Below are positions 3,038 through 24,531 of a DNA stretch of 64,000 bases, piece after piece. The notes beneath the pieces were generated by a model. It ran no database searches. It had not been told where the DNA came from and saw only the letters and a list, made by a program, of their open reading frames with translations. Location: the NCBI GenBank assembly GCA_963833985.1, contig CAWIAD010000002.1, positions 1,248,001 to 1,312,000 on the forward strand. The letters run 5' to 3'. The stretch comes from an uncultured Planctomycetaceae bacterium. GTDB taxonomy: Bacteria > Planctomycetota > Planctomycetia > Isosphaerales > Isosphaeraceae. The position numbers and the translations under genes are program-made. Positions within the stretch are counted from its first letter, which is position 1. Every line of letters begins with the position of its first letter.

Positions 3038-3041
3038 TTCC

Positions 3042-5908: not shown

Positions 5909-6015
5909 ACAGAGGCCCGTCCGCGCCGGCCCGGGGACTTTCCCAACCTCGGTGCAGGTCTCAACGTCAATACGGCTCGTCCTTCACGGGCGGCCCGCCG
6001 GAGGCTCACTCAGCC

Positions 6016-7449
6016 ATGGTCGACTGCGTCCTGGTCTACCCGAACCCGTCTCGCGATAGCCCCAATCGCAACCTGGCGCTGGGCATTCTCTTCGTCGGTG
6101 CGGCTCTCGAGGAGCAGGGCTTCTCCGTCGCCTACATCGACCTGCGCTTCGACACGAGGCAGGAACTCGCCGGCTTGCTGACTGGCGGTGTGCGCGTGCT
6201 CGGCGTCTCCGTCATGACCGGGAACCAGTGCAAGGAAGCCGCGGAGGTACTTCGCATGGCGAAGACCCTCGCGCCCACTGTCCGCACGGTCCTTGGCGGT
6301 GTGCACCCGTCGATGCTGCCACAGGAATGCCTGGATGAACCCGACGTCGACTTCGTCGTCACCGGCGAGGGCGAGCAGACCATGGTCGAGCTGGTCCAGG
6401 CCATCCTCGACGGCACTCACGATTTTGGCGGCATCACGGGGCTGGGGTGGAAAGATCACGGGGAGACGAAGCGGAACCCCGACCGTCCGTTCATGGACCT
6501 GGCAAGTGCGCCGTTCCCGATGACTCCGGCCAGCAGGCGCTTCTACGAGATTGCCGCCCGTACGGGTCACGTCAGTTACTTCACCACGCGCGGCTGCCCT
6601 TTCCGTTGCAGCTTCTGCTACAACCTGGCCTTCAACAAGCGGAAGTGGCGCTCGCTTCCGATGGAGCGACTCGAGGAGGATCTCCGGCGGGTCCGCCGCG
6701 AAGTTCCGTTCGACCACGTCTACTTCGTCGACGATTACGTCGGCCATCGCGTCGAGCGTCTCCGCGACCTGGCCAGCACCATGAACCGCATCCAGCTCAC
6801 CTGGCACTCCTCGATCCGCGTCAACGACATCAGCGCCGAGACGGTGAAGATCCTGGCCGACGGGAATTGCAGGCTGATGCTTCTGGGTGTCGAATCGGCC
6901 GCCGAGGACGTGCAGCAGGGAATCCTCGTGAAGGACTATCGCCAGGGCATCGACGACGTGCGCCGTTGCGTCACGAGCATCGCGCGGACGAATATCACGC
7001 CGCTCTACAGCTTCATGTACAATGTCCCCGGCGAGACGTCCGAGCAGCTCAAAGAGTCATGCGAGCTGGCCGAGTGGATCCATCGCACCGATCGACGGGC
7101 GCGGATCGGCTTCTACGCGTACACGCCCTACCCGGGAACGCCCCTCTATAATCAGGCCCTCCAGTCGGGCTTTCGGCCCCCCTCGCGGCTGGAAGGCTGG
7201 GGACAGATGAGCCTGAGCAACGACCTCAACCCGAAGCTGCGCGACCTCTACTACATCGCCGGACTTCGCTTCCGGGGCCGCAAGGGCGACCGCACGGATG
7301 AGAACTTCCCCGGGCTCCAGCGGCTGCGCATCCTGCCTTTCGAGGCCATTTCACGAATGCGCTGGCGAATGCGGAGTTTCGTCTACACGGACTACGAACG
7401 CCGGATGGTCACCAACATGATCGAGCACGCCACGCGCCGTGCGCGCTAG
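6016..7449 (+). CDS. Cobalamin-binding radical SAM protein (class B methyltransferase-like)
   Basis: GGVHPS, GEGE, TRGCPFRCSFC, GVES, PYPGTPLY; GGAGG upstream of ATG 6016. Confidence 0.92.
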   Translation: MVDCVLVYPNPSRDSPNRNLALGILFVGAALEEQGFSVAYIDLRFDTRQELAGLLTGGVRVLGVSVMTGNQCKEAAEVLRMAKTLAPTVRTVLGGVHPSMLPQECLDEPDVDFVVTGEGEQTMVELVQAILDGTHDFGGITGLGWKDHGETKRNPDRPFMDLASAPFPMTPASRRFYEIAARTGHVSYFTTRGCPFRCSFCYNLAFNKRKWRSLPMERLEEDLRRVRREVPFDHVYFVDDYVGHRVERLRDLASTMNRIQLTWHSSIRVNDISAETVKILADGNCRLMLLGVESAAEDVQQGILVKDYRQGIDDVRRCVTSIARTNITPLYSFMYNVPGETSEQLKESCELAEWIHRTDRRARIGFYAYTPYPGTPLYNQALQSGFRPPSRLEGWGQMSLSNDLNPKLRDLYYIAGLRFRGRKGDRTDENFPGLQRLRILPFEAISRMRWRMRSFVYTDYERRMVTNMIEHATRRAR

Positions 7450-7469
7450 ATGAGAGGGTCGGCACGACG

Positions 7470-10085
7470 ATGATGGAGGACACAACGGAAATCTGCATCT
7501 GGGGGGCCGGCCTGGTGGGCTATTCGCTCGCGTGCGCCCTGGCGGAACGCGGGCGGAAGTGCATACTGGTCGATATCTCCCGGGATGTCGTCGAGCGCAT
7601 CAACGCCGGTGCTCCCCCCCGTTCACTGCATGGTGTGTACGGCTCTCAGCCCCTGGATGCCGGTGTCCGCGGTCGCTTGCGGGCGACGATGGAGCCGTCG
7701 CTGGCACTGTCGCCCGAGCACCCTGTGCACATCATCGCGGTGCCCACGGAGCGTGGGGGCCTGGTTTGCTCGGACCACCTGCGTGAGGTGGTCGAGAATG
7801 TCGCCCGTGCGGAATCCGCGGCGCGTCCGCTCTACTTCCTGATCGAGTCCACCGTCTCCCCCACCTGGATCGATGGCATCGTCCACGCGACGTTCCGAGC
7901 CGCCGGTTGGAGGCACGGCGAGGATTACCACGTTGGCTGTTCACCGCGGCGCGATGTCTTCGGCGATCCTGCTTATGCGATGCAGCAGATCGACAAGGTT
8001 TACGGTGCCGACAGCGAGCAGGGTGCGGAACTGATGCAGGCACTCTACACTCCGCTCTGCCGGGGACTGCATCGGGCGCCCGATGCTCGCCATGCATCGC
8101 TCACGAAGCTCGTGGAGAATCTCTACCGGCACCAGGCGATCCTGCTGGCGAATCGGCTCGCGGCCGCGCTCCCCGGCTTCGACGTCGCGGAGGTGCTCCG
8201 CCTGGCCGCGACGAAATGGAATATGCAACTCTACCATCCCTCCCTCTGGGTCGGCGGCTACTGCGTTCCGCTCGCGAAGGATTACCTGGCGTCCTCGGTG
8301 GAACCGCAATGGAGGGACGATCTCCTCCCGGTCGAGGATATATCAAGGATGGAAAAGTTGTTCCTGGATGCCCTTTTTGCCGGAGCGTCGGGCCGGCGGG
8401 TTGGTCTGCTCGGGCTTTCGTACGCGCCGGGTCTACGTATCGTGGTGAACGCTCCGGCGCTGCGGGTCGTGCGTTACCTGAAGCGTCGGGGCCTCGAGGT
8501 GGCTGTCCACGACCCCTATTTCAGCGAGACCGAGATCCTCGAGCTCGCAGCAGTGCCCAGGTTCGATTTCCCGAGCGAGCTGCGAGACTACGATGACGTT
8601 GTGCTGCTGACCGCGCACGTGGAGTATAGCCGGATCTCCGATCGCGAGCTGGCCGCTCATCTGCCGGCGCGGGCCCGGCTCATCGACAACTGCGGCATCT
8701 GGAGACGGCGCCGCTGGGCGGAGGGGATCCGCTACGTCGAGATTGGCGGGGCGGGCTTTCGCGGCACCGACATGCCGGATGGGCAGGCAATTCAAGCCTC
8801 GGAGATCGAGGCCTCCGACTGCCCCGTCGCGTGCTCACCCGCCAGGAACCGGGCGTACCTGGAGCGGCTCGAGCGGGAAGGTGAGCTGCCAGGGTTTTAT
8901 ACACACGTGGATCGCATCCTCCAGATCGACCGAGACTACCTGCACGCGCAATTCGACGGTGAGCGAATGAATATCCCGCAGCTCGGGGAACGGGTGCGGG
9001 CCCTACGAGGCAAGCCGATCGCCGACCACTCCGACGCCCAGATCGATACCATCTGTGCTCTTGCAGTCTATGGGATGGCGTGGGTGCGGCTCGAATACGT
9101 CGATATGCGAGTGACGATGGAGCGCGCCTGTCGCTACCTCGTGGATACGGCCGAAACTTACAATCGGAACCTCCTGGAGATTGGAGAGGAGCCAGCCCGA
9201 TGGCCGCCGGGATCTCCCTGGTGGAAGATCGCGTCGCAAATCCCGGAGCTACGCGAGCGGATCGACGGGCATTATTTCCGGCTCTCTCTCATCAACGGCG
9301 CGAACTGGTACCGGAGGGAGGTCTTCCTGAGGAAGCAAGAGCTCGAGCCGCAGCCAATGCCCCGGACTCTTGCCGGCGCATTCGCAGCGCATTCGCCGGT
9401 TCCCAGGCTGATCGACGCGAGCGATCCGCACGAATCGCTCCGTGCCCTCACGAGGGCGGTGCTCGAGCGAGATCAATCCCCCACAACTTTGCTGGTGACA
9501 TTGATGAAGGCGGCGACCGAGGACCCTTGCATCGACGCCCACCACACGACACTGCTGTGCCCGCGGGGCACGATGCTGGAACGTCCCTGGGAGATGTCGC
9601 CAGAGGACTTCCTCGCGTACGTCGTGTTCCGCCCGGGGTTCGAGCCGCCGGTCGGCCAGGGCGTGCACGACTTCCGCACGATCCAGAAGGCGATGCTGGC
9701 TCATCACGCGGCGAAAAAAACCAAGCTGGCAAGGCGTTACAAGGCGCGCTACGGCCCTGGCTCGGTGGCGCAGCTTGCCGACAATCTTGGTGATCTGGGG
9801 ATCTACTACAATGAGGACGCGCACCATAAGGGCCACCAGGTTGCCGGCGTCGCGTCCGCCATGCGTTATCTCATGCCCGTGCGGGTGCGGCGCGAGGAAA
9901 AGGAATTCCGGATCGAGGGCCTGACCGACTTCCGGGTCACACGCATGAGCCGGGCGGAACGAGATCGCTTCCGCCTGGAGGACTTCCCGCTGTTCCATGA
10001 CTACGGCGGCTGGGCGCGTACCATCCTGGAGACTGCGTATTCGATGGGCTTCGTCTTTCCCCGAATGCTCGAGAACTGGCGATGA
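7470..10085 (+). CDS. Nucleotide-sugar dehydrogenase (UDP-glucose/GDP-mannose dehydrogenase family) fused to an unrecognised ~430-aa C-terminal domain
   Basis: N-half GAGLVG, AVPT, IESTV, KLVEN, VGGYCVP, LGLSY, HDPY; C-half unrecognised, contains NEDAHHKGH. Confidence 0.8.
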   Translation: MMEDTTEICIWGAGLVGYSLACALAERGRKCILVDISRDVVERINAGAPPRSLHGVYGSQPLDAGVRGRLRATMEPSLALSPEHPVHIIAVPTERGGLVCSDHLREVVENVARAESAARPLYFLIESTVSPTWIDGIVHATFRAAGWRHGEDYHVGCSPRRDVFGDPAYAMQQIDKVYGADSEQGAELMQALYTPLCRGLHRAPDARHASLTKLVENLYRHQAILLANRLAAALPGFDVAEVLRLAATKWNMQLYHPSLWVGGYCVPLAKDYLASSVEPQWRDDLLPVEDISRMEKLFLDALFAGASGRRVGLLGLSYAPGLRIVVNAPALRVVRYLKRRGLEVAVHDPYFSETEILELAAVPRFDFPSELRDYDDVVLLTAHVEYSRISDRELAAHLPARARLIDNCGIWRRRRWAEGIRYVEIGGAGFRGTDMPDGQAIQASEIEASDCPVACSPARNRAYLERLEREGELPGFYTHVDRILQIDRDYLHAQFDGERMNIPQLGERVRALRGKPIADHSDAQIDTICALAVYGMAWVRLEYVDMRVTMERACRYLVDTAETYNRNLLEIGEEPARWPPGSPWWKIASQIPELRERIDGHYFRLSLINGANWYRREVFLRKQELEPQPMPRTLAGAFAAHSPVPRLIDASDPHESLRALTRAVLERDQSPTTLLVTLMKAATEDPCIDAHHTTLLCPRGTMLERPWEMSPEDFLAYVVFRPGFEPPVGQGVHDFRTIQKAMLAHHAAKKTKLARRYKARYGPGSVAQLADNLGDLGIYYNEDAHHKGHQVAGVASAMRYLMPVRVRREEKEFRIEGLTDFRVTRMSRAERDRFRLEDFPLFHDYGGWARTILETAYSMGFVFPRMLENWR

Positions 10086-10714
10086 ACCGGACGATGCTTG
10101 CGCTCATGGCCCACCCGGACGATGCCGAGCTGTGCATGGGGGGGACAATCGCCCGCTACGCGCACGCCGGGTTCCGGGCCGAGATCGTGATCTCGTCGCT
10201 GCCGGACTTCCCGGACGTCCGTCGTGCCGAGGCTGCTCAGGGGGCTGCGGTCCTCGGCGCAGGTGTCCGCATCCTCGCTCCGCCCTCGAAACGCGAGACC
10301 TGGCAGGTCGAGGACTTTCCGGTGTACCGGCTGGTGGCGGCCTTCGACGCGATCCTGGAGGAGCTCCAGCCGTCCCTCGTATTCACGCACTGGCCCAAAG
10401 ACACGCACTTCGATCATGTTCGAGTGAGCCAGGCAGCCTTCTCGGCCACACGGAGGCACAGGGTCGACCTGTACCTGTGCGAGCAACCCAACCTCTACGC
10501 GGCCACCGTGGAGCCGATGAAGTTGAATACGTATGTGGACGTATCCCAGTTCATGGATAAGAGACTGGACAGCATCGCCTGCCACCGGTCGCAGACACAG
10601 GGGAAGACCTATTCGGAGCACGTCCGTGCCCGCACCCGGTTCCACGGGGAACGGACCGGCTGCCAGTATGCGGAGGCCTTCTGCTGCGCAATCCAGCGGC
10701 TGAGGATTGATTGA
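10082..10714 (+). CDS. PIG-L/LmbE family deacetylase
   Basis: AHPDDAE..MGGTI, RRAEA, THW..D.HFDH, CHRSQ, YAEAF; start overlaps the upstream stop. Confidence 0.92.
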   Translation: MNRTMLALMAHPDDAELCMGGTIARYAHAGFRAEIVISSLPDFPDVRRAEAAQGAAVLGAGVRILAPPSKRETWQVEDFPVYRLVAAFDAILEELQPSLVFTHWPKDTHFDHVRVSQAAFSATRRHRVDLYLCEQPNLYAATVEPMKLNTYVDVSQFMDKRLDSIACHRSQTQGKTYSEHVRARTRFHGERTGCQYAEAFCCAIQRLRID

Positions 10715-11574
10715 GCATGGGGCATTCCAGTCCTGTTGGGTTCTCGACAACGGTCATCGGGCGTTCGACCGACCTCAGCCGTCTGCTGGAGCTCGAACCC
10801 GACATCATCGAGCTGTGCGGCTATTCCGCCGCGCAGTGGCCCTCAGTGCGGGCGCAAATCGAGCGGTTGGGCATTCCCGTAGGGCTCCACTGTCCTTTGC
10901 CGTTCGAAGGATTCGTCCCCCACTTCGATATCACGGGACCAGACTCTGCGCGACAGGAAGAGGCTTTTGCGCTGGTCCGCCAGACACTTCGAGCTGCTTG
11001 CGAAGTGCAGGCCCGGTACGTCATTGTCCATTTCCCGAGCGTGCTCCGTGAGATTCTCGACGAGGATGACGCTCTCGAATCTCGTCGTGCTGCGGCGCTG
11101 TGCAGCGCACGGCGGATCGCGGAGCTCAGCCAGCAATACGGGGTGGCGATCCTGCTGGAGAACGTCGGCCCCAATCCTTATCTCTATCTCGGCGAGCACT
11201 TCACCTGGTTGTTCGGCCAGGTTCCCGAGCTGAGGATGTGCCTCGATTTCGGCCACTCCCATGTCCTGCCGGGAGCCGAGGACGTGTATCGATTTGCCGA
11301 GCAGGTCGCACCATTCGTCTCCGGGCTCCACGTCTACAATGCGACCCGGGCGGGCTATCGGGTCGGTTTCCACGAGGCACCGCTGGCTGAGCACGATCCC
11401 GACGAAGGCTGGATGGACCTGTCCAGGCTGCTCGCCGTGATGGCGAAGAGAGCCACGATTCCTTATTTCATTTTTGAGTACTCCGAAGATAGTGGACAGG
11501 ATGTGGAAGCCGTCCGGCGCGGCGTGCAACACTGGACCGCGACCTGGAGGAGTCTATGCCGCGAGGAGGGTTAA
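10711..11574 (+). CDS. Sugar-phosphate isomerase/epimerase (AP endonuclease 2 TIM-barrel) family protein
   Basis: LHCP, IVHFP, LLENV, CLDFGH, LHV, FH, IFEY metal-ligand pattern. Confidence 0.8.
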   Translation: MSMGHSSPVGFSTTVIGRSTDLSRLLELEPDIIELCGYSAAQWPSVRAQIERLGIPVGLHCPLPFEGFVPHFDITGPDSARQEEAFALVRQTLRAACEVQARYVIVHFPSVLREILDEDDALESRRAAALCSARRIAELSQQYGVAILLENVGPNPYLYLGEHFTWLFGQVPELRMCLDFGHSHVLPGAEDVYRFAEQVAPFVSGLHVYNATRAGYRVGFHEAPLAEHDPDEGWMDLSRLLAVMAKRATIPYFIFEYSEDSGQDVEAVRRGVQHWTATWRSLCREEG

Positions 11575-12707
11575 GAGGCTGGCTCCGTGGGCAACGGCTC
11601 CGTGCGCGGGGGGCGTCGCTCGGGGCGGGAACTTACGTCAGCCAGGGAGTGCGGATCAGCGCCCCGGACATCCGGATCGGGGCCGGCGGTTTCCTCGCCC
11701 CGGGCGTCGAGATCCAGGCGGATCGTGTCGTGATCGGCGACCGCTGTCACGTTGCGGAGGGGGTTTCACTTCGCGCAGAGCGCATCGAGATCGGCGAGAA
11801 TTGCATCCTGTTTCCGGGCGTTCGCATTCAGACGCTCGGCGAATTCCGCATGGGCCCGTACGGGAAGATCAGCCGTGGCGCGACGATCAAGGGGGGAAGC
11901 GTCCGGATCGGGTCCGAATTCTGGATGAACGCCGGCGCCGAGATTGGCGGCGGGGGATGGCGCAGTCGGACAGGTTGTTTCGAGGCGGGGGACCGCTGTC
12001 ACGTGGGCCGGTTGACTCACATCAATGTGACCGAGCCGGTCGTCTTCGGCGACGATACGGCGGTGGGCATGCACTGTATCCTGGCAACACATGCGCACTG
12101 GCAACCCGCAACGCAGGGCTATCCGCGGCTGCGCGGGGCCATCCGGCTGGGGTCAGACGTGGCGATCTATTCGGGAGTGATCATATCTCCGGGCGTCACC
12201 GTGGGTCACGGCGCGGTAATCGCGGCGGGCGCGGTCGTTCAGACGGACGTACCGGATCTGTCCCTGGCGGCGGGAGTGCCGGCACGAATCGTCCGTGAGC
12301 ACTTTCCCCGCGGTGGGGGAGCGCCTGTCGCCCTGGCACTGCTCTGCGAGTACATGGAAACGCGCTTCCCGGGTGTATCGTACCACTCGAAGGCCGGGCG
12401 TTTCATCGCCCAGCCCGCCACCGGAGCCCAGTGCATTCTGTATGACGACGATGAGAGTGCGATGGACCACGAGTCACGGCCCGGGTCGCTGATCGTCGTC
12501 ACGCTGAACCGGGCTGTTGCGGACGCGGCACAATCCGGAGCCGAGACCGTCTTCAACCTCGGTGATCGCGAGTTGACGGGCCGCTCCACGGAATTGAGCG
12601 AGTCGCTGCGTCAGTTCTTTTTCAGCGCGGGCCTGCGCTTCAAGTACCGAGGATACCAGCGCGGACCGCTGGACTACGCGCAACTGATCGAGTCCGGAAT
12701 CGAGTGA
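11556..12707 (+). CDS. Hexapeptide-repeat (left-handed beta-helix) acyltransferase with C-terminal extension
   Basis: Many IG-x-x repeats; PGVTVGHGAVIAAGAVVQTDVP..SLAAGVPARIVR. Confidence 0.88.
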   Translation: MPRGGLRGWLRGQRLRARGASLGAGTYVSQGVRISAPDIRIGAGGFLAPGVEIQADRVVIGDRCHVAEGVSLRAERIEIGENCILFPGVRIQTLGEFRMGPYGKISRGATIKGGSVRIGSEFWMNAGAEIGGGGWRSRTGCFEAGDRCHVGRLTHINVTEPVVFGDDTAVGMHCILATHAHWQPATQGYPRLRGAIRLGSDVAIYSGVIISPGVTVGHGAVIAAGAVVQTDVPDLSLAAGVPARIVREHFPRGGGAPVALALLCEYMETRFPGVSYHSKAGRFIAQPATGAQCILYDDDESAMDHESRPGSLIVVTLNRAVADAAQSGAETVFNLGDRELTGRSTELSESLRQFFFSAGLRFKYRGYQRGPLDYAQLIESGIE

Positions 12708-12779
12708 CTGGAAGGAGCAGCATGGCATGCCCTGGATACGCCCACCGAGTTGCGGGGTGGGTCCGCCTGGCCGTACCCG

Positions 12780-15224
12780 TCACCAATCCCGGACCAGTCC
12801 TCCCACCTCACGCTCGAGGCGCCCCACGAGCTCCCGAACGGACTGGTTCACCTCCTCCATGGAGAGGGTTCGGTCGCTGGCCTGGTACAGCAGCCGATAG
12901 GTCATGCTCCGCTTGCCCGGAGGGATTGGCGCACCCCGATATTCCGTCACGAAATCGACCGACGCGATCCAGTCAGAGTGAGCCGCGCTGAGCAGGCGAT
13001 CCAGCGCCTCGTGCGTGACGGCCTCGTCAACCGTGATGGAGATGTCGATCGGGACGCCCGGGTGTCGATGGATGGGACGGAAGACCTCGGGCGTCGGGGT
13101 CAGTTGCTGGAGCACGTCGAGATTGAACTCCGCCAGCGCCAGGTGCGGGCCGCAGCCGAGCGCGTCGGCGATTCTGGGGTGGAGCGTCCCGCACACGCCG
13201 ACGGGCGCGCCTGCCGCATCAACGAACTCGGCCGAGCGTCCGGGATGGAACCACGGGGCAAGCTGTCGCTCGGGATGACGAGGCCGGATCTCCAGGTTAA
13301 GCCTGCGAAACAGTGCCTGGGTGTGCCCTTTCAGGATGGACATCGCCTCCCGGTGCCAGCCCGAGTCGCTTGCGGGTTCAAGTCCTCCGCCTCCGGACGG
13401 ATCGCCGCCTTTCGCATGCTTCCAGTAGACCAGTCCCAGGTGGAAGGGCTGATCCGGCAGACCCTTGGCGGGATGAAAGGTTCGGCCCACCTCGTAAAGC
13501 GAAAGCTCTCGCGTGTAAGGAAGACTGCGCTGAAGCAAGCGGAGCAGGCCAGGTACGAGGTAAGCCCTGAGATGGGTGTTCTCCGCGCTGATCGGGTTGC
13601 GGAGCGACACTCGCGCCCAGGTGCAAGGACCCAGTATCTTCAGAAACGGCTCGAAATCGAAGGAATAGGTCCGCGCCTCGGTGTATCGCAGGGCCAGAGA
13701 GAGCAGTGTGCGAACGCGCTTCTGGAAGACCAGGACAGGGTCGCGGTAGGCGTTGGGCAACTGGATCTGGGGTTGTACGGGTGGGATGTTGCCGTAGCCG
13801 TGGATTCGGCCGACCTCCTCCACGATGTCTTCCGGGATGGCGATGTCCTTCGTGGCCCGGAAGCTTGGTACCCGGATGCGCAACGTGTCGCCCTCGAGTT
13901 CGCGAATTTCGAACTCCAGACGACGCAGGTCGGAGACGATCGCCTCCGCGGGAATCGCAGTGCCCAGCCGCTCATTGATGAAGGAGACGGATACGTCGAT
14001 CTCGACTGATGGCGTTGGGCCCGACTGGAAGTCGGTAAGGGAAGAGGCGACGCGCGCGCCGGGCAACAAATCGATCAGCAACTGCGCACACCGTTGCGCT
14101 GCGAGCGGAGGAAGAGTCGGGTCCACTGCCCTTTCGAACCGGGCGCTGGCCTCGGTGCGCAGGCCGAGGCGAGACGCCGTCTTGCGTATCGAGGCCGGAT
14201 CGAACGTGGCCGCCTCGATGAGAATGCTGCTGGTATCAGCGCGCACTTCGCTGTTTTTCAGGCCGCTCACCCCAGCGAGCGCGACCGGCCCTTCGGCATC
14301 GCAGATCAGCAGATCGTCGCTGCCGATCTGGTACTCCTGGCCGTCGAGGCCGACCACCGTCTCGCCGGCGGGCTGTCCCGTTTGCACGACGATGCGGCGA
14401 CCGTGAATCTCGCGTGAATCGAAGGCGTGCAGCGGGTTGCCCAGATCGAGCATCACAAAATTCGTGACATCGACAAGCAGGTTGATCGGCCTGAGCCCGC
14501 AGCGTGACAGCAGCGTCTGCATCCACAGGGGCGAGGGCACCGGCCTGACCCCCTCGACACGCAACGCGACGTAGCGAGCACAGCGCTCGGGTGCCCGCAC
14601 GTCGACGGCCACGGCAGGCGTTGTGCCGAGAGACAGTTCCACGGGAGGGATACGGAAGGGTCGCCTCAACAAGGCTGCCACCTCGTGCGCCAGGCCGGCG
14701 TGGCCCCACAGGTCGGGCCGGTGGGTGATTGACTTGTTGTCGAGCTCGAAGATGGTGTCCACCAGCGGGAGAACCCGGTCCAGAGGCGTCCCCGGCGCCA
14801 GCTCATCGGGCAGCACGCAGATGCCTGTCTGGTTGTCCGTCAAGGTGAGCTCGGCCGGCGAGCAGAGCATTCCATCGCTCGATGTGCCACGAATGCTCGC
14901 GCTCTTGACCGTGGCGCCGCCCAGACGCGTCCCGGGTGGAGCGAGCGCACTCTTCATGCCCTGCCGCACGTTCGGTGCGCCGCAGACGACCTGGCGCGGG
15001 GATCCTGATCCGTCGGACACAATGCAGATCGAAAGGTGGTCGGAGTCGGGGTGGGGCTGCACGCTGATCACTTCGGCGACGACGACGCCCTCAAGGCCGG
15101 CCCCGAATACGTGAAACCCTTCCAGTTCGGCCACGGAGCTTGTGAATCGGCGTGCCAGGTCCTCCCGATCAACACCGTTCAAATCGACATAACGTCTCAA
15201 CCAGTGAAATGAAAACTTCATCAT
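12780..15224 (-). CDS. pheT: Phenylalanine--tRNA ligase beta subunit
   Basis: VVCGAPN, SDGMLCS, HRPDLWGH, INLLVDVTNFVML, RTEASARFER, VPSFR..DI..PEDIVEEVGRIHGY, NPIS, C-terminal anticodon-binding domain; 814 aa, intact. Confidence 0.97.
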   Translation of the reverse strand: MMKFSFHWLRRYVDLNGVDREDLARRFTSSVAELEGFHVFGAGLEGVVVAEVISVQPHPDSDHLSICIVSDGSGSPRQVVCGAPNVRQGMKSALAPPGTRLGGATVKSASIRGTSSDGMLCSPAELTLTDNQTGICVLPDELAPGTPLDRVLPLVDTIFELDNKSITHRPDLWGHAGLAHEVAALLRRPFRIPPVELSLGTTPAVAVDVRAPERCARYVALRVEGVRPVPSPLWMQTLLSRCGLRPINLLVDVTNFVMLDLGNPLHAFDSREIHGRRIVVQTGQPAGETVVGLDGQEYQIGSDDLLICDAEGPVALAGVSGLKNSEVRADTSSILIEAATFDPASIRKTASRLGLRTEASARFERAVDPTLPPLAAQRCAQLLIDLLPGARVASSLTDFQSGPTPSVEIDVSVSFINERLGTAIPAEAIVSDLRRLEFEIRELEGDTLRIRVPSFRATKDIAIPEDIVEEVGRIHGYGNIPPVQPQIQLPNAYRDPVLVFQKRVRTLLSLALRYTEARTYSFDFEPFLKILGPCTWARVSLRNPISAENTHLRAYLVPGLLRLLQRSLPYTRELSLYEVGRTFHPAKGLPDQPFHLGLVYWKHAKGGDPSGGGGLEPASDSGWHREAMSILKGHTQALFRRLNLEIRPRHPERQLAPWFHPGRSAEFVDAAGAPVGVCGTLHPRIADALGCGPHLALAEFNLDVLQQLTPTPEVFRPIHRHPGVPIDISITVDEAVTHEALDRLLSAAHSDWIASVDFVTEYRGAPIPPGKRSMTYRLLYQASDRTLSMEEVNQSVRELVGRLEREVGGLVRDW

Positions 15225-15332
15225 GTCCTCGGATTAGTGGACCTGCTGGCAGGCACATGCTGCGCCATCCGGAATGCGTGGGGCTTCCTCCCGGAGCCGC
15301 ATCGACGACCCGGGGGCGCGCTGGCTCCCCGC

Positions 15333-16387
15333 TCACTCCAGGCCCAGGCCCAAGAATTGCTTGAGGAAGCGGATGTCCCCGTCGAGAAACAAGCGGATAT
15401 CCGGGATCTTGTAGCGCATCATTGCGAGACGGGACAGCCCGAGCCCGAACGCCCAACCCTGCCATTGCTCGGGGTCGAGGCCGCCGGCACGGATGACGTT
15501 GGGGTGGACCAGTCCGCACGGGAGCAATTCCACCCAGCCCGACATCTTGCAGACCGAGCATCCCGCCTGGCCGCACACCAGGCAGCCAATATCCAGCTCG
15601 AAGCCGGGCTCGACGAAGGGGAAGAAGCCTGGGCGAAGCCGGATGGCCACCCTGGCGGCGAACACTTCCGAGAGCAGGCTGGTCATCGAAGCAATCAGGT
15701 TCGCCACCGTGGCCCGTCGATCGATGAAGAGGCCTTCCACCTGGAAGAAGGTGTGCTCGTGCGAGGCGTCAACGGCCTCGTGCCGGAACACCCGCCCCGG
15801 GAAGATGGCTCGGAACGGCGGAGTAAAAGTGCGCATGGCCCGGACCTGGCCGGCGCTCGTATGGGTCCGGAGCAGGTTGCCATCCTCCAGCCAGAACGTA
15901 TCTTGCATGTCTCGGGCGGGGTGATCGGGGGGAATGTTCAAAGCATCGAAATTGTAATATTCCGATTCGGCCTCCGGATAATCGAGTACGTAGAACCCCA
16001 TCGACTGGAAGATCTCCTGGAGGCGCCACTCCATGAGGCTGATCGGATGGAATGTTCCAGTATTGACCGGGGTGCCAGGGAGCGTGGCGTCGAAGTCGTC
16101 CGCGACGAGCTCGGCCTGGAGCCGAGCTTCCGCAAGCTCGGCCTTGCGCCGGCCGGCCAGGCCTTCGACTTCCCGAACCGCGTTGTTCAAGGCGCTGCCA
16201 AAGACCTGCGCTGCTCGGGGGAGAGGGTTACGATCTTCTGGAACAGGGCACGCAGCAGTCCTTTCTTGCCGGTGTACCGGCGCTCGGCGGCCTCGAGCGC
16301 CGTCAGGTCCGCCGCGCGCGTGATGGCATCTCGGGCCTCTTCCTCGAGACTCTTCAACACTTCGTCCGCAGGCTGATTTTCGCTCAT
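15333..16387 (-). CDS. pheS: Phenylalanine--tRNA ligase alpha subunit, one frameshift near 16206
   Basis: N-terminal YTGKKG coiled coil in one frame; NFDALNIPPDHPARDMQDTF, LRTHTS, GRVFR, FPFVEP, GWAFGLGLSRLAM in another; adding one base near 16206 joins them. Confidence 0.95.
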
Positions 16388-16616
16388 ATCTGGATGGCTC
16401 ACGGGAGCTCTCGGCGAAGCACTCGCGCAGGGCGCAAATGGACCGCTCGAGCATGGCCGGTTCCGCACAGGGCTCGAACGCTTTCCCGATGGTCTGACGT
16501 AACTCGTGACTGGATCGGCGAATTCGCACGCGTCGAACCGGTCGGAACGCAATCAGTCTAACCGATGCCCGGGAGGAGAAGTCAACGGCAGACTAACCCG
16601 AAGGCCGGTCCGGAGA

Positions 16617-16970
16617 TCAGGCGGCAGTCCCGGTCAGAGGGAGCCCGGTAAGGCTCCAGTGAGGAAGCCCACCCTGAAGGTAATTGATGCGAGTGACCCC
16701 ATGCCGCTGGAGCTCGTGGCAGGCGGCGAACTCCTCCTCCTCATTGTCGCCGACGACCAGGTAGTGCAGCCCCCGAGGGAGCGTGGGAAGCATTGCCGGC
16801 AATGACTCCAGGGGAACATTCCGCGCACCCTCGATGTGCCCCAGGGCGTACGCGGCTGGATGTCGGATGTCCAGAAGTTCGAGAGTGGGAGTACCCCGGA
16901 GGGAGTGATAGGCCTCGGTCGGTGTCAGGTCTCTCCATTCCCGGTTAAGTCCTCGGGGGCCCGGCGGCAA
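16617..16970 (-). CDS. Rhodanese-like domain, probably the C-terminal domain of the upstream decarboxylase
   Basis: LLDIR...Y..GHIEGARNVP...YLQGG..W; frame stays open upstream past 17130; no Cys at the active-site loop. Confidence 0.8.
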   Translation of the reverse strand: MPPGPRGLNREWRDLTPTEAYHSLRGTPTLELLDIRHPAAYALGHIEGARNVPLESLPAMLPTLPRGLHYLVVGDNEEEEFAACHELQRHGVTRINYLQGGLPHWSLTGLPLTGTAA

Positions 16971-17007
16971 CGCTTCCTCCAGGCTGTCTGTCCTTGCCGG
17001 ATTGCCC

Positions 17008-18366
17008 TCAACCCTCGCTGGCGCCTGGCACGGGAATGCGAGCGTGATCCGCTCCTCCTCCCGCGTCTCGACGGCGCGAGGTGGAAACGAGCTGACGTCC
17101 GTCGTACGAAAGACCCCGCCGTCGAGGCTCGACGAGAATTTCTCTGGGCGGAGTCTGGTTGATGAAGTAGATCGGGCTACCTGTCAAACCGTAGGCACCG
17201 GAGCAGCAGACCGCCAGGAGATCCCCGACTTCCAGGGAAGGCAGCATGGCCTTGCGGGCAAAGGTATCGTGAGGAGTGCAAAGTGGTCCCGCCAGGCAAT
17301 ACGGTCGCTCTGCTCCGGCAGGCTTTGCGCCGGAGACCCTGATGATCTCATAAGGCTCGCCGAGAAGTCCGAGATGCCGGCATGCGCCGAGATTGTGATG
17401 CATACCGCCGTCACAGATCGCAATCTCGTCTCCTCCAGATGATTTGAGGTAGAGCACTCGCGTCAGATAACAACCGGCCTCGCCAGCAAGATAGCGGCCG
17501 GTCTCCAGCACGAACCGCGTCTCCTCGAAGCCAGCGCTTCCACGCAGTTCCACGAGCATGGGGCGGAGGCGCCGGGCGAGCGCTGGAAGGTCAACGGGCT
17601 CGGCCGCCACGGTATAGGGGATACCCAGGCCAGCACCGAGCACGAGCAGCTCAGGCCGGAGCCTGAACCTGGAAACGGCGGGAACGCATGCCCGCAGGAA
17701 CCGTCCCATGTTCTCGGCAATCTGGCCGGCATCACAAAACTGTCCACCTTGATACGTGTGAAAACCACGTAAACAAAGGCGGGGAAGGCGAGCAATCTGT
17801 TCCAGGGCGTCGTGGAAGCAGCTCTCGGCAATCCCGAACTTGTCGGGGATTCGGAGTGCCTGCTCGCTCGCAGGGGGCGCTGGCCTGGCGAGGGCCAGGC
17901 GAACCAGCACGGACTGCGGACTCTCGCCGTGCCCCGCCGGGACGTGGTGATGCAATCGTTCGGCCTCCTCCACGGATTCCAGCACAACGTAGCCGATCCG
18001 CTGACTGGCCGCGGCCCGCAGTTCCTTGTCGGTCTTGCCGGGACCTGTGAAGCTGAGTTGCTCGGCGGACCAGCCGGCCGCCGTGGCGAGAGAGATCTCT
18101 CCTGCGGACGACACATCCAGCAGCTCGGCGTGCCCACGGAGCCTGCTCAGGAGCGCGGGGTTGGGATTACTCTTGACGGCGTAGCTGATGTCCAGAATGT
18201 CGTCGAACGCGCGGCGCAGCATGCGAATGCGGTCGTGGATCTGATCCATGAAGTAGACGTAGCAGGGCGTCTCGTACCGCTCGGCGATTGCGCCCAGCAG
18301 CGGGTGCAAGAGGGCCGCGGCATCCGTGCCCGCAAGCTGGGGTAAGTTGATCCGCTTCATCTGCAT
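17008..18366 (-). CDS. PLP-dependent group IV decarboxylase (diaminopimelate decarboxylase/BtrK-like)
   Basis: TPCYVY, SYAVKSNP (PLP Lys), FTGPGK, KFGI, ETGRYL, DGGMHH, GPLCT, GAYG. Confidence 0.9.
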   Translation of the reverse strand: MQMKRINLPQLAGTDAAALLHPLLGAIAERYETPCYVYFMDQIHDRIRMLRRAFDDILDISYAVKSNPNPALLSRLRGHAELLDVSSAGEISLATAAGWSAEQLSFTGPGKTDKELRAAASQRIGYVVLESVEEAERLHHHVPAGHGESPQSVLVRLALARPAPPASEQALRIPDKFGIAESCFHDALEQIARLPRLCLRGFHTYQGGQFCDAGQIAENMGRFLRACVPAVSRFRLRPELLVLGAGLGIPYTVAAEPVDLPALARRLRPMLVELRGSAGFEETRFVLETGRYLAGEAGCYLTRVLYLKSSGGDEIAICDGGMHHNLGACRHLGLLGEPYEIIRVSGAKPAGAERPYCLAGPLCTPHDTFARKAMLPSLEVGDLLAVCCSGAYGLTGSPIYFINQTPPREILVEPRRRGLSYDGRQLVSTSRRRDAGGGADHARIPVPGASEG

Positions 18367-18463
18367 TCCGTCAAAGGGGGACCTGCGTCATGAACTGGAA
18401 GCGGCTCGCCGCGCGCGTTCGACGGGGGGGTCTCTCGGACGCTTGAGACACGGAAGCTCATGT

Positions 18464-19321
18464 CTATGTCGGGAAGATCGGTCGGAAATGCCTGCGCAGC
18501 CAGTCGTTCGCCTGCAAGTCAATGGCCAGAGTGATGCGATCTGTCGTGCCAAAGTTCCACATATTATGATAATATATTGTATTGAAATAATAGAGCGCAC
18601 CTGGCGGAAGCTGATAGATCTTGATGGCATCCTGGTTGGCCGCTACGAACATCTGGTACCACGATTCCATCTGGGCTCGCCCCACGCCTTCCCCGGCCCA
18701 ATCCTTCGTGGTGCAGAACCGACGATCCGGGACAGTGAACTCCTCGAGCTGCGTTGCCGAGCTGACCATGAGGAAAGCCTGGTCATTGGTGACGATCGGA
18801 ATCTGAAATCGCTTGATCTCGGGGCTGAGGTCGATGTCCGCGTGCAACGTGTAGCTGGTACCTGGCGCCCGTCGCAGCAGGCGAAACGAGACGATCTCAC
18901 ACGAGAAAGCCTCGAACAGCTCCTCGAGGTACGGGCAGCCGTCAAGGCGTTCCGCAGGCGGTTCGGGAGATCCGTGACCCTCAGGGAGGACCCAGTTGTT
19001 GCCGTGCTCCCTCCCCGAGGCCGAAAGCCGACGAAACGTGAGCGGCAGGCTGTGGCCGTACCGGCCCCGGCTCCAGTCCCAGCCCGCAATCGCGTGCCGC
19101 ATGTCGGCGACCAGGCGGTCCAGGTCAAGTTTCAAGAACGTGTAAAGGTCCCCATGAGCCGCGCGGCCAGCGATCGGGCGCACGATTGCCGGGTGCAGAG
19201 TCTCGACCAAGGATACTGGTGGAACGCTTGGTTTCCCCAAAGGACCTGCTCCTCGGCTCCTTGACCGGATGATTCCTCTGATTCGATCATCATCGAAGTC
19301 GACCACTCTGTTGCAGATCAT
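18464..19321 (-). CDS. Aspartyl/asparaginyl beta-hydroxylase-family Fe(II)/2OG oxygenase
   Basis: LHAD, RFQIPIVTN, FNT..YH..WN.G..DRI.L.ID; start overlaps the stop of the upstream gene. Confidence 0.82.
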   Translation of the reverse strand: MICNRVVDFDDDRIRGIIRSRSRGAGPLGKPSVPPVSLVETLHPAIVRPIAGRAAHGDLYTFLKLDLDRLVADMRHAIAGWDWSRGRYGHSLPLTFRRLSASGREHGNNWVLPEGHGSPEPPAERLDGCPYLEELFEAFSCEIVSFRLLRRAPGTSYTLHADIDLSPEIKRFQIPIVTNDQAFLMVSSATQLEEFTVPDRRFCTTKDWAGEGVGRAQMESWYQMFVAANQDAIKIYQLPPGALYYFNTIYYHNMWNFGTTDRITLAIDLQANDWLRRHFRPIFPT

Positions 19322-20406
19322 CCCGCTTCTCGGTGCTTCTCGGCGGCATCCGCGCGAACTTCCGCGTACACTGGAAAATCATCACCGATGCTCACACCAA
19401 CGACCATGGCGGTCACCGGACCGAGCGTCACACCACGGCCGGGCAACACCGGCTCTTCACGCACGCAGGCTCCGTCGCCCCGAGACAGCTGCACCAGGTT
19501 GAGGAAGATATTGGTCGCAAACGAGCCGGAGGGGACCTCCCGCATCGACGGATACGCTCTGCCTTGTTCATCGAGGACCCGGGGCAGAGATCTTCGCCTC
19601 CTCAGGGTCAGGCCGACCGTGTTCGAGCCTCCCGAGAGAAACGCCTGGGCCAGCTTGCCCTGGTAATCACCGAGGTGGCCGATATTGCTCAGATAGACGT
19701 ATTCATAACGCGACGATGCAGCCAGCTCGCGGATGTCAGCCAGACCGACGCGCAGCACCGTGTGACAAAGTCGTTCTTTAAGAAGATCATAGGTGTTTTC
19801 CGTAAGGAAAGCATCGATCCGCTGCTGTGCGGCCGGGTGATAGCACAGCCTGTGACGGACGAGCCTGGAGTTGTCGGCGTCCCGTGCGTTGACAGTCGCC
19901 AGCATGCGGTAATGCGGTTGCCGGAGCAAATCAAAATACGTCCGAGCCGGAGGTGAAAGCCAGGCGCGTAGGGACTCATATCCCGCTTCATCGAAGAAGG
20001 GCCCGCAATATGTGTTGTCGTTGATTTCGGGGAGCTTGAAGAGTCGCAAATACTCGATTAGCGACAATTGCTCAACGGCTAGGAATTTCAGCTCCGTCAA
20101 GAACAGCGCAAAGGGGGAAAGATCCATCACGCGAATCGAGGCGCAGCCCTTCGAGACGAAAAGGAGCGGCAGGTCCCCGCAGCCCGCAACCGTCAAGACG
20201 TTCCGGCCCGCGAGATCGACCGTCCTGGCCAGTACACCGAATGGGTCAGATGAGTTAACATAGAGAACAGTGCTCACGTCCTCAATCGATGTGAGCGTTT
20301 GTCCTGGCAGGCCGTCGGCGAGGCTGTGCATCAGGCAAGAGACGCGCTCCGCGGTGAGACCGGAGGAAGCGTACTCGGATTCCAGTTGCTCCGCTACAAA
20401 GCTCAT
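19318..20406 (-). CDS. DUF3419/BtaA-like SAM-dependent transferase (candidate 3-amino-3-carboxypropyl transferase)
   Basis: VLTVAGCGD, D.S...LFLTELKFLA...L...EYL.LF, YVYLSNI. Confidence 0.68.
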   Translation of the reverse strand: MSFVAEQLESEYASSGLTAERVSCLMHSLADGLPGQTLTSIEDVSTVLYVNSSDPFGVLARTVDLAGRNVLTVAGCGDLPLLFVSKGCASIRVMDLSPFALFLTELKFLAVEQLSLIEYLRLFKLPEINDNTYCGPFFDEAGYESLRAWLSPPARTYFDLLRQPHYRMLATVNARDADNSRLVRHRLCYHPAAQQRIDAFLTENTYDLLKERLCHTVLRVGLADIRELAASSRYEYVYLSNIGHLGDYQGKLAQAFLSGGSNTVGLTLRRRRSLPRVLDEQGRAYPSMREVPSGSFATNIFLNLVQLSRGDGACVREEPVLPGRGVTLGPVTAMVVGVSIGDDFPVYAEVRADAAEKHREAG

Positions 20407-20772
20407 GATGATTCCCCGTGCTCGCGGACCGGCAATCAACTGCGCCCTCGTGGTACGCCTCACTGGGGGTTACGCCAGAGAGTCTCTGCCAGGACTGAAA
20501 CGGCGGCCGACCGTGCCGTCCCGGGTCCCTGGCAAGCTCCACTGGGACCCGCTGCCCGTGCGGCCGGTCTTGAAGCAAGCGCTGCTCAGGCACCCTTCAG
20601 GATCAGGATCCTGCCACCTGGGACCGCTCGGCGAGAAGCAGAGCGGGATGACGGGGCAAGTCCTCATCATAGCGAGGTCGAATGGGCCGGTCAAAGCCGA
20701 GTTCTCGTAGCCCCTTCATGCTGCTCGATAGCCCAATCCGCTGGCGAAGGCCAGTGGAAACCGCATTCAGCA

Positions 20773-20781
20773 TGATATAAT
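20773..20781 (+). promoter_or_regulatory. Candidate extended -10 promoter element
   Basis: TGATATAAT (TGnTATAAT) in an AT-rich patch of the divergent intergenic region. Confidence 0.35.
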
Positions 20782-21155
20782 ATGGAAGTGCGACAATATA
20801 AGCAAACACAAAACTCAGTGCTGTCGCGAGTGATCACTGTCAGCTCCTGGATTGGCATCGGGCGGCTTCAATGGGGCCCGGATTCGCCTCTGTGTCATCC
20901 TCCCCGTGGTCATGGCGGCAGGGGAGGCCCGGCGAGTTGGCGCCCGAGCCCCATCCTGTAACGGAAACGGCTTGCTCAAGGACTGATCCGGTGCATAATG
21001 AAGAGCCGGAAGTCCAATCGTCGATCCGGCGCGTTCGGTCGGTATTTGCCCCTGGCTCAGGTCCTGTCACGCGCTGGACCCAGGCTGCGGTGGCAGGGGC
21101 GATACGGGCGATCCTTTCCACGAGCTTTTTGCCAACCCACGAGGATGCGGGACCT

Positions 21156-21533
21156 ATGGACCGACTGGCGGCGGATCAGGTGCACCTCATTCTGCAAGAC
21201 CTGCCTGAGTTCTCACCGCAAGGGCGCTCGGTGCTGCGACTCTACCGGTCGCCGGAGAGCGAAATCTTGCTCGTCTGCTGGGAGCCCGGGCAGGAGAGCT
21301 CCACACACGATCATGGATCGTCGGAGTCTATTGTCCATGTGCTCCAAGGCAGCCTGATTGCCAATCCGGGTGGCCGGCTGATCCGCGAGCGAGAAATGGT
21401 GATCACGCCGCGCGGTGCGATCCACCAGCTTGTGAACAGCTCTTCGTCTCGAGCCGTGAGCCTGCATGTGTACAGTCCCCGTTTGCACACCCCGATCTCG
21501 CCTCCCTTCAAGGACCTGACTCAGGTCCCCTGA
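21156..21533 (+). CDS. Cysteine dioxygenase-like cupin
   Basis: CWEPGQESSTHDH, IHQLVN, SLHVYSP. Confidence 0.85.
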   Translation: MDRLAADQVHLILQDLPEFSPQGRSVLRLYRSPESEILLVCWEPGQESSTHDHGSSESIVHVLQGSLIANPGGRLIREREMVITPRGAIHQLVNSSSSRAVSLHVYSPRLHTPISPPFKDLTQVP

Positions 21534-21658
21534 ATGGTCGATGGCGAGCTGAGTATGTTCCACTTTGGCTTCGGCCGCGCCGCCGGTGACAACCTCGTCT
21601 TCAGGTCGCGAGAATCAAGGATAGCCGCAGGGCCCCTGGAGCCGGACACGGAGATCCG

Positions 21659-23703
21659 TCAACACCGAGCCACCCGGGAGGCGCCGAGGACGCTTTCCGT
21701 GCTGTCGCCGGGCCCCAGGTCAGGACGCACGCGCACATAGCCGCGCACGTTACGGATGCGGTCGAACCAATGGTTGAACTGGCCGGCATCACAGGTCGCG
21801 GGATTCAGCGTGACCAGGTCTTCCTTCGGTAAGGACTCAGGATTTCGATCGAAAAGGTACTCTCCGGCGCGCAGAGTGCGAAATGGGACAGGTCGTGCAG
21901 GTAATTCGTGGCACTCCAGGCGGACACGTCGTGCCCGAGCTCCACGCGGTTGGGCCGACCATGATCGGCAGCGCCGTAGTATGCCAGTGTGAAATCTCTG
22001 AGTGACTCGAGCTCCACGGCCGTCGTCCTCGGACGACCCGGATCCGCGTCGGGAAGGCACTGGACCAGAGTCTCGAGCACCAGTTCGACGAGCGCCGGGA
22101 CGAGATCGTTTCGGATGAGATGGTGCGCGAAGAGGAAGCCAACGCGCGTGAGCCGATGCTCTCGCGAGAATCTCTGCCTGACCGCGCAGCAGCTCGTCAT
22201 GGGAACAGTAGAGCTCGGACTCGAGTTGATCTTGCAGGTAGGCAAGCGATGCCGACACGGCAGGAGATTGGGCGGCGCGCTTGATGACCCGGAAGAACAG
22301 CTCTGATTCGATGAGGCCTCGGGAACGAGCGAAGCGTGAAATGGGTTCACCCAGTCCGCAGTGGTGCCAGAACGCCGTCAGTGAATGAAAATGGCGGAGT
22401 GTGAAGTAGTCGGCCTGTGACAGGGTGCTGGTGGCGATGACGATCTCCTCGGATTCAATGACGATCTCTTTGCCGTCGAGCTCGAGGATGCAGCCGTCCG
22501 ACAGTCGAAACCGCGTCTCCAGCCCGAATTGCTCTCGCGCCCGGGGGGACGCGAGCTCGGTACCGGGTATGAGCACGAGATTGAACATATCAACCTTATC
22601 AACTCCTTGCTCGTAGAGGCTGCCCAGGCTGCGACGGAAGGAGCCGAGCGAGTCGCCGGGGAGCCCGACGATGAGGTCCGACGCGGTAAAAAGGTTCTTC
22701 GAGCGGGCGTAGTCCGCGAGGTCCCGATAGTCGGACAGCCGGATGTTCTGACGCTTGATGTTCTCCAGCACTTCCGCGTTCAGCGACTGGACCGCGAGCA
22801 GGAAGCGGACTTTCTTGCCGAGGATTTCCGCAATTTCCACAAGCCGTCGGCTCGAGTTCTTTGCGTACCAGAGGTGGATCTGAGCCGGATAGCCATGTGT
22901 ATTCCAGAGCTTCTCGAGGTGCGTGGCGATGGCGCGGTCGCGGCCAAGGATACCGAAGTTGGCGTCCGCGATGGTGAGATGGTCATTCCCGCGGCGCGCC
23001 GGGCAATATAGCTCAATTCCTCGCACACCCGATCGAAGCTGAATTGATGGATCTTCGCGACAGTCGCCGACCCCCAATTGCAGAACGTGCAAGAGAAAGG
23101 GCAGCCGCGGTTGGTCTCGACAATGGGCGTGAAACCCCGGTCGAGGAAACGATCGAGCAACCCGCTCAGGTACGGCGACGGCACCTGATCGAGATCCTTC
23201 AGGCGTTCCGGGGCACCGCCATGGCAGAGCTGGCCGTCGCGCAGGTAGCCCAGGCCAGCGCCTGGCAACGCATCGAGACTGCCGCCGAGGACGGCCTCGA
23301 TGATGGCGGCGAACGTCCGCTCGCCCTCGCCGATGACATAGTAATCCAGCAGGGGACGGTGTTTCAGGAACGCCCACGCGGCGGCGCTTTCAGCGTCATC
23401 GAAATGAGGTCCCCCCTGGATGGTGATCGTGGCCGAATTCGACTCCTTGGCGCGACGGAGGCATTCGTAAGAGAGCGCCGTGTTCCAGACATAGTTGCTG
23501 GAAGCAACGATGTCGTAGCGGGTCGCCGCCAACGCCGCCAGAATCCGGTCCACCTCGCGCTCGATGTCGATGCGGACCTCCTGGCCAAACCGGCTAAGGA
23601 CGTACGATGCCAGCAGGCCGGCGCCCAGGGGCATGTACCAGTACGGTGTATGCCTCCCGTAGACGGGGTCGATCAGCAGGATATGCAGTGGTCTGCTGGC
23701 CAT
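21659..23703 (-). CDS. Cobalamin-binding radical SAM protein, apparently split by three frameshifts (~22985, ~22170, ~21870)
   Basis: SNYVWN, GGPH, GEGE, PSPYLSG, ETNRGCPFSCTFC.W in the first frame; IADANFG, QSL, LIVGLPG, IPGTEL in the next. Confidence 0.85.
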
Positions 23704-23799
23704 GAGAACTTCCCGATCGGATGCTGCCGCTTGCGGCCTGACTCATGAGCGAGTTGCCGTGCAAGGGTTGGATATCAGATGTGTGAATTCACAAGAGCG

Positions 23800-24531
23800 T
23801 CATTCCAGACCGATCCGGCAATTGCCAAGGCAAACCTCCGTGACCCTGCCGTCGGTGCCGCAGTCCGTCCGCGCGTGCAGGAATCGGTGGTTCGAAAACG
23901 CAATCAATTCCCCCGCGCGGAGAGTGGCGCGCACGTGGAGATCGGTCCAGATCGGGCAGAGGCGGATGAGCTCGTCGAACAGCTCTCCTTCACGCTGAGT
24001 GAGCTCGAGGTGGCTGGCCTTGTCCGCGGCACGGCGGTCGAACACCCGGGTCACGCCCCGAGGATGATCGCGGGGCACCAAGGGTACGAGCGGCCTTCCA
24101 CCCTCCGCGAGGTTCAGGATCCGAGGCTCGTGGAGCATGTGAAGAATGTCGTTGCGCCCGAGCGACGTGAGCCGTTCCATCACGTCGTCGATGTGGACCA
24201 GGAGATTCGCACCGCCCGTCGGGTCGGGGTGCACACAGCGGATGATCGTATACATCGGAGGCACAAGATAACGCGTCATGTCAGTATGGAATGCCAGGAA
24301 ACCGTGTCGCTGGGAGGTGTATTGACCGGAATCCTCGTCGATGCGGCAGACCCAGACGCCCTCCTTCCAGAATGGATGATCCGTCCACGCCTTGAACCAG
24401 GGCATCAGCGCGGCGAGCAGCTCGAGCAGCTCAGCCGGTGCGTCCGGCAGCTTCTTGATCAAGACCGCCTGGGAATGTAACGGATCATGCGTGATCGGGC
24501 AGGAGTCGAGTTCGTCCCACGTGTCCACCAC
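23800..24531 (-). CDS. TauD/TfdA-family Fe(II)/2OG dioxygenase
   Basis: FHTD, GGAN, NHRFLHAR. Confidence 0.85.
   Translation of the reverse strand: MVDTWDELDSCPITHDPLHSQAVLIKKLPDAPAELLELLAALMPWFKAWTDHPFWKEGVWVCRIDEDSGQYTSQRHGFLAFHTDMTRYLVPPMYTIIRCVHPDPTGGANLLVHIDDVMERLTSLGRNDILHMLHEPRILNLAEGGRPLVPLVPRDHPRGVTRVFDRRAADKASHLELTQREGELFDELIRLCPIWTDLHVRATLRAGELIAFSNHRFLHARTDCGTDGRVTEVCLGNCRIGLE

Follow-up and report, generated by a model that had tools for sequence, protein, structure and literature searches.

The locus considered here holds pheS and pheT, the genes for the alpha and beta subunits of phenylalanyl-tRNA synthetase (PheRS), in an uncultured bacterium of the planctomycete family Isosphaeraceae (assembly GCA_963833985.1). 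It belongs to a stretch of 64,000 nt from contig CAWIAD010000002.1 (C2 below; positions 1,248,001 to 1,312,000), which we call the window and to which coordinates refer unless another contig or locus is named. The whole genome comprises 10.16 Mb in two contigs (96.3% complete, 3.9% contamination) and carries 76 DUF1559 domains, as fits a member of the Planctomycetota. Both genes are co-oriented on the minus strand behind genes for a DUF3419 protein, a hydroxylase and a decarboxylase, and they converge on an operon resembling those for peptides that ribosomes make and that are modified after translation (RiPPs). A sequence-only reading of the window had described this arrangement, down to the 72-nt gap between the converging operons, and had seen in it a possible self-resistance PheRS. 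Orientation, gap and gene order were all borne out, while details needed correction: a rhodanese domain (PF00581, 16617-16970) lies between the decarboxylase and pheS, and pheS is split as assembled.

Both products score above the cut-offs of curated equivalog models: PheT reached 597 bits with TIGR00472 (cut-off 403) and PheS 268 bits with TIGR00468 (cut-off 237). The N-terminal ~65 codons of pheS (from 16387) and the rest of the gene lie in different frames, owing to a one-base break near 16205-16215, and the two parts align to the intact homologue P0133 at 69% and 88% identity. Since there is no other pheS in the genome, this frameshift is likely an assembly error, and the enzyme would be active despite it. 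By hand count, ~4 of 26 other genes conserved in genomes of the same genus (congeners) are split too, one of them a sigma-factor-like gene with 88-94% identity, and none of the essential genes audited (rpoB, rpoC, tuf, ribosomal proteins) is frameshifted in the assembly. Depletion of CCWGG was considered as a cause of the frameshift and rejected, as no such depletion was seen.

According to the sequence-only reading, the self-resistance proposal would suffer if this pheS-pheT pair (pheST) were the only one in the genome, followed the species tree and were absent from related clusters. As for the first point, tblastn and Pfam searches found a single pheS and a single pheT, both within the window, and no second pheST, although relics of the native genes, described below, testify to a former second copy. 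As for the second point, the genes do not follow the species tree. Congener rplT is 90-95% identical to that of this genome, while the PheS encoded after it is only ~42-47% identical to the window PheS. Among 120 genomes of the family, 112 gave a PheS match, none exceeding 49% identity across the gene (a single short fragment reached 54%), and none of the 120 carried the window type. The nearest homologues of the window PheS are P0133 (88%) and P0002 (79%), followed by a group at 68-74% that includes Myxococcales-named proteins. In a quick tree of 79 rows, the window PheS, P0133 and P0002 grouped together (SH-aLRT 99) inside a Myxococcota-type clade, and monophyly of the window PheS with eight host-family rows was rejected by the approximately unbiased (AU) test (p=3e-51; 29 of the 79 rows, likewise with quick trees). 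On a separate matter, records titled Bordetella, Limnocylindrales and Solirubrobacteraceae (L139, L148, L158) carry Acidobacteriota-type PheS; the Bordetella-titled genome was placed among Acidobacteriota-like genomes, and the titles may be wrong.

The sequence-only reading had also counted the lack of infC-rpmI-rplT around pheST in favour of cluster membership. Those genes are indeed located on the other contig (C1), with none near the window pheST. However, none of 160 loci with PheS of this type (113 of them at least 10 kb long) gave an rplT match, so that its absence is normal for the type; as evidence of cluster membership it carries no weight and was rejected.

What became of the native genes can be read on C1. 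In all 11 congener loci mapped, and in genome G014 as well, the native order is rplT, pheS, a small open reading frame (ORF), an APC permease gene and pheT. The same synteny persists on C1 (1297528-1300150), with pheS and pheT present only as fragments: a 5' piece of pheS with a stop, a 170-nt 3' piece with a frameshift, and 34 codons of pheT, beyond which a transposase-like ORF, which we take to be IS4-like, occupies the former pheT site. The 3' relic of pheS spans invariant motifs; compared with congener G011, 11 of its 57 second codon positions have changed, while five congeners each differ at 0 of 66-67. Because the relic has changed at second positions that stay unchanged in congeners, the loss of the native genes must be old. 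An assembly gap at this site was considered and rejected, the locus being contiguous and holding relics. The PheT that congeners retain is short (~670 aa), without a B2 domain, and its editing loop diverges at the equivalents of T354 and A356 (L034:2784-7995 and congeners). With a foreign orthologue present and the resident genes decayed, the case is one of xenologous displacement long ago, in which the foreign pheST replaced the native genes and has carried the load since. The pair is the sole copy, it is of foreign origin, relics of its predecessors survive, and it resides in an island missing from congeners.

That island measures ~31 kb and has no counterpart in five of five congeners, in which the DNA on both flanks is present. 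It is embedded in a 6.6-Mb contig, and pheST lies in mid-block with biosynthetic genes on both sides (Table 1). No island-flanking repeats were found in window positions 1-35000, a range that leaves the left border outside. On the minus strand, the decarboxylase is closest to BtrK, and a one-base indel divides what is a single decarboxylase-rhodanese protein in its homologues; the DUF3419 protein is presumably linked to BtaA. A search for a regulatory RNA or leader upstream of pheS gave no Rfam match in window positions 1-35000 and folding z-scores of -0.7 to 1.0. No promoter, terminator or RNA family was called in the rhodanese-pheS gap, across which pheST may be co-transcribed with the module.

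The converging RiPP-like operon encodes two radical SAM/SPASM-like enzymes, a DMATS-like prenyltransferase (a weak match), a B12 radical SAM enzyme, a UDP-sugar dehydrogenase fused to a 430-aa domain, a PIG-L deacetylase, a TIM barrel protein and a hexapeptide acetyltransferase. Its candidate precursor (1138-1464; 108 aa) has a C-terminal Cys/Trp core and is a singleton in the protein collection, and the 430-aa domain (8787-10085) had no match in Pfam, NCBIfam, PDB or the ESM Atlas. At the left end of the island, upstream of the window (L263:15725-19331), there are a class III aminotransferase gene and a 623-aa ORF without a family match. The B12 radical SAM gene at 21659-23703 and ybaK (25807-26547) are each split by a frameshift, which may stem from assembly error or from real decay of the island. 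Elsewhere in the window, part of a catalase-like gene forms a 225-nt direct repeat (85%; 29517-29741 and 31994-32218), and an ISAs1 transposase (33688-34815) and an integrase-like ORF (45931-46977) mark a mosaic region.

Table 1. Features of the pheST locus, its island and the Azospirillum comparison cluster (SAM, S-adenosylmethionine; PLP, pyridoxal phosphate; NRPS, nonribosomal peptide synthetase; PKS, polyketide synthase; AT, acyltransferase).
Feature	Position	Strand	Remarks
pheT, PheRS beta subunit, 813-814 aa	12780..15224	-	TIGR00472; B2 tRNA-binding domain; Myxococcota-type xenologue; editing residues kept, flanking substitutions
pheS, PheRS alpha subunit	15333..16387	-	TIGR00468; 88% identical to intact 351-aa P0133; one-base frameshift as assembled
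Spacer between pheS and rhodanese, 229 nt	16388..16616	-	No Rfam family; neither consensus promoter nor terminator called; fold not unusual
Gap between converging operons, 72 nt	12708..12779		From hexapeptide gene end to pheT stop
BtrK-like type III PLP decarboxylase with C-terminal rhodanese domain	16617..18366	-	Fused in P0148/P0388 (69%); split here near 17130
AspH-like hydroxylase	18464..19321	-	PF05118, weak
DUF3419 protein	19318..20406	-	Predicted SAM-dependent aminocarboxypropyl transferase; stop/start overlap with hydroxylase
Sigma-70-like promoter match, 10/12	20666..20694	-	Upstream of DUF3419
Further island genes: cupin (+), B12 radical SAM (-, split in two frames), TauD-family oxygenase (-), DUF3050 (+)	21156..25911		
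RiPP-like operon	1138..12707	+	Converges on pheT
Island portion within window	1..26050		~31-kb island; left border ~4.7 kb upstream, C2 ~1243350
B510 cluster	L264:14-24028 (NC_013855.1 744840-768855), L265:38004-46001		NRPS/trans-AT-like PKS; A-KR-T-C module

Whether this type of PheRS keeps company with the minus-strand module elsewhere was approached through the closest homologues. For P0133 (PheS, 88%), P0269 (PheT, 75%) and P0388 (decarboxylase-rhodanese, 69%), the longest contig on record has the same length, 52,693 nt. They likely share this one contig of a second organism, a match that covers one biosynthetic gene and gives no gene order. After P0148 and P0388, the next decarboxylase matches are at ~50% or lower; the DUF3419 protein likewise has a close homologue, P0396 (62%). 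From the contig match we infer that pheST travelled together with the DUF3419-hydroxylase-decarboxylase module. Thus, the third point of the sequence-only reading, absence from related clusters, likely does not apply, although no such cluster turned up in the genomes searched. The source genome of P0133 and P0269 was absent from 120 family, 400 class and 400 phylum genomes, from 301 Myxococcota-centred and 301 Acidobacteriota-centred genomes, from viral contigs and from the 160 loci.

An independent case came from Azospirillum B510. PheS matches occurred in 54 plasmid records, of which only pAB510a (NC_013855.1) carried this type (58%; the next record reached 45%). Its pheS-pheT pair directly follows the last NRPS gene of an NRPS-PKS operon flanked by insertion sequences and is accompanied by a formyltransferase gene at the operon end. 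The cluster also has a LuxR gene (Pfam), a LuxI-like gene, an aminotransferase and a thioesterase gene (labels from reading the sequence), and it has no biosynthetic genes in common with the window. Near ordinary loci of this PheS type, an NRPS/PKS match was found in 1 of 160. Monophyly of the B510 and window PheS was rejected (p=0.004; 52 of the 79 rows plus B510), which points to separate recruitment and rules out a single cluster-specialised PheRS clade uniting the two. We found no characterisation of the B510 cluster in the literature, including the main text of the genome paper (PMC2818188). As a candidate for classical self-resistance it is stronger than the window, and it occurs in a cultured strain, which would be expected to have a pheST on its chromosome as well.

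In the foreign PheT itself, changes concentrate in the editing domain. In an audit of 119 of 120 matches (over 700 aa), seven of 47 near-invariant columns of domain B3/4 were changed in the window protein, versus one of 69 in the remainder of the protein (post hoc Fisher test, p=0.007), and the leave-clade-out maximum was three changed B3/4 columns among 116 homologues. The small subclade formed by the window, P0133/P0269 and P0002/P0270 shares the changes T291G/A, L335I and F378C, and M319S is found in two of its members. M319S adjoins the equivalent of G318, a residue of the editing site according to the portion of PMC8599791 available to us. The Phe pocket of the window PheS differs from that of the native type.

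Taken together, these data lead us to suppose, tentatively and with slightly less than even confidence, that the foreign PheST came with the DUF3419-hydroxylase-decarboxylase module, likely as self-protection against a predicted phenylalanine-like product. Judging from the domain content, the minus-strand module most likely makes a small amino-acid-like compound through predicted SAM-dependent aminocarboxypropyl transfer by the DUF3419 protein, hydroxylation and PLP-dependent decarboxylation, possibly with sulfur handling by the rhodanese domain. One may speculate that protection of the producer by the foreign PheRS would rest on the PheT editing domain, which would clear a mischarged Phe analogue more effectively; alternatively, the Phe pocket might be insensitive at the level of the whole clade. 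The native enzyme, useless or harmful in a producer, could then have been lost. Its decay would have left an essential gene on the island and made the island undeletable.

The interpretation given in the sequence-only reading is partly supported. In terms of ARTS, the genes lie inside a biosynthetic cluster, the ~31-kb island, and show the phylogenetic incongruence expected of horizontal gene transfer (the AU result and the 0 of 120 family genomes given above); present-day duplication is lacking, and on that account we do not class pheST as a resistance gene.

Several observations weigh against self-protection. There is no second intact housekeeping pheST today, and among the island proteins scanned none was found to be adenylating or clearly Phe-specific. 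In its codon usage, pheST does not stand out (pheT score 0.25, GC3 0.78, ~22nd percentile, like the native pheT of genome G002), and codon usage and GC content were rejected as proof of co-acquisition. The contig link to the second organism is indirect, and no true cluster homologue was found in 160 related loci, where the few matches were domain matches of 23-32% and one YbaK. In PheT, the editing residues R244, N254, H265, G318, E334, T354 and A356, as named in the accessible part of PMC8599791, are all kept. Four of the seven changed columns (L335I, K364R, L366V, F378C) turned to residues seen in other PheRS; only T291G and M319S stand out, and the post hoc domain test is not significant alone for P0269 (p=0.09) or P0270 (p=0.06).

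A second explanation deserves serious attention, and we would give it a somewhat smaller though still considerable chance. In this scenario, a free-standing pheST happened to lie beside the donor's biosynthetic genes, has no role in the chemistry of the cluster, and displaced its native counterparts either fortuitously or through some general advantage such as its B2 domain and canonical editing loop, after which the host could not lose the island. The type is a common housekeeping enzyme: Myxococcota-type PheS occurs in 61 of 400 phylum genomes (sole-copy status was examined for G031 and four others only), pheST is free-standing in the two nearest Myxococcota genomes, and the 160 loci without rplT fit the same picture. 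In family f8, four of eight genomes carry this PheRS type. An independent lone displacement by it, again as the sole copy (L281:6928-10426), is found in G1380, from another planctomycete family in which one of 97 genomes has the type, and no homologue of the biosynthetic genes of the window or of B510 lies within 32 kb of it. The catalytic core and Phe pocket of the window PheS are those of the parent clade, with one of 112 near-invariant columns changed. Moreover, displacements of PheS are on record, with three events for COG0016 (available portion of PMC3151239), and phylogeny alone flags 26% of core genes, as the ARTS authors state in the part of PMC5570205 at hand. On the other side stand the central position of pheST in the island, the linkage to the decarboxylase, likely retained at 69-75% protein identity, the independent cluster-terminal pheST of B510 and the excess of editing-domain changes.

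Instead, the foreign PheRS might have been recruited because a step of the cluster depends on tRNA: it would make Phe-tRNA, or a modified form that the altered editing site lets pass, and would have become the housekeeping enzyme later. Valanimycin VlmL and the PEARL enzymes offer precedents, and the changes beside the G318-equivalent residue, together with the adjacent RiPP-like operon and its 430-aa domain of unknown function, would suit such a role. Nevertheless, no island protein scanned matched the LanB/PEARL, FemX or CDPS families, and a sole housekeeping enzyme must stay Phe-specific, which makes this supply role improbable. Finally, it is very improbable that the island was misassembled into the genome or that pheS is a true pseudogene with a working copy in unassembled DNA: the pheS frameshift, the audited essential genes free of any and the completeness and contamination values would permit it, but the contiguous native locus with its old relics means that a replacement PheRS must exist, pheT is intact and conserved, as is pheS apart from the break, other congener-conserved genes are split as well, and the island lies inside a 6.6-Mb contig.

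It is tempting to go further and to suppose that Myxococcota/Acidobacteria-type pheST was repeatedly recruited as self-resistance, namely in the window island, in the 52.7-kb relative and in B510; that the products would be the first bacterial ones directed at PheRS; that a remodelled proofreading site clears a cluster-made Phe analogue; and that the 31-kb island was locked in as a result. As a whole, we regard this extended scenario as unlikely. PheRS is a pursued antibacterial target, and concrete leads come from two unrelated clusters that carry a foreign pheST at their end, one of them in a strain available in culture. The locus also exposes a blind spot of duplication-based mining, as a copy that confers resistance can end up as the sole one. 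Should the link to biosynthesis prove neutral, the locus remains a clean fossil record of the swap of an essential two-subunit enzyme, one that would make an accessory island indispensable.

Resistant synthetases are borne by the clusters for mupirocin (IleRS), albomycin (SerRS), borrelidin and obafluorin (both ThrRS). The available parts of two sources add the LeuRS of agrocin 84 (PMC5570205) and the ThrRS of vibriomycin (PMC13515044). As in these systems, the synthetase of the window is phylogenetically foreign, lies in a biosynthetic island and closes a run of biosynthetic genes that share its orientation. It differs in that it is a PheRS, is encoded by two genes and is now the only copy since the native one decayed, and in that the changes concern the editing domain rather than the synthetic site. 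We found no cluster-borne resistant PheRS in the literature searched, though supplementary tables of ARTS-type studies could hold pheS entries, and in the accessible portion of a review (PMC7916415) fungal ochratoxin A is the only natural PheRS-directed compound. The likeness to MccD/MccE of microcin C (PMC10491745, in part) is one of logic only: a predicted SAM aminocarboxypropyl transferase is paired with a PLP decarboxylase, and the cluster has a connection to an aminoacyl-tRNA synthetase. In the window, the decarboxylase is closest to BtrK and there is no MccB-like adenylyltransferase; homology of the DUF3419 transferase to MccD was not detected, as phmmer, a 59-sequence profile against PDB and tblastn against plasmids gave no match.

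Compared with housekeeping PheRS of the Myxococcota/Bryobacteraceae type, the window enzyme shares the clade, the Phe-pocket motifs and the missing rplT context, but it belongs to a small subclade with common B3/4 changes and linkage to biosynthetic genes. With the B510 cluster it has in common the broad PheRS type, its foreignness to the host phylum and its 3'-terminal place in a biosynthetic operon, whereas the PheS lineages are separate and the chemistry of B510 is NRPS-PKS. Displacement of universal single-copy genes has been described in 68 events, three of them in PheS (PMC3151239, portion available). As there, a foreign orthologue has replaced a resident essential gene; the present case differs in that both displaced genes have left legible relics at their native site, and in that a biosynthetic island houses the replacement.

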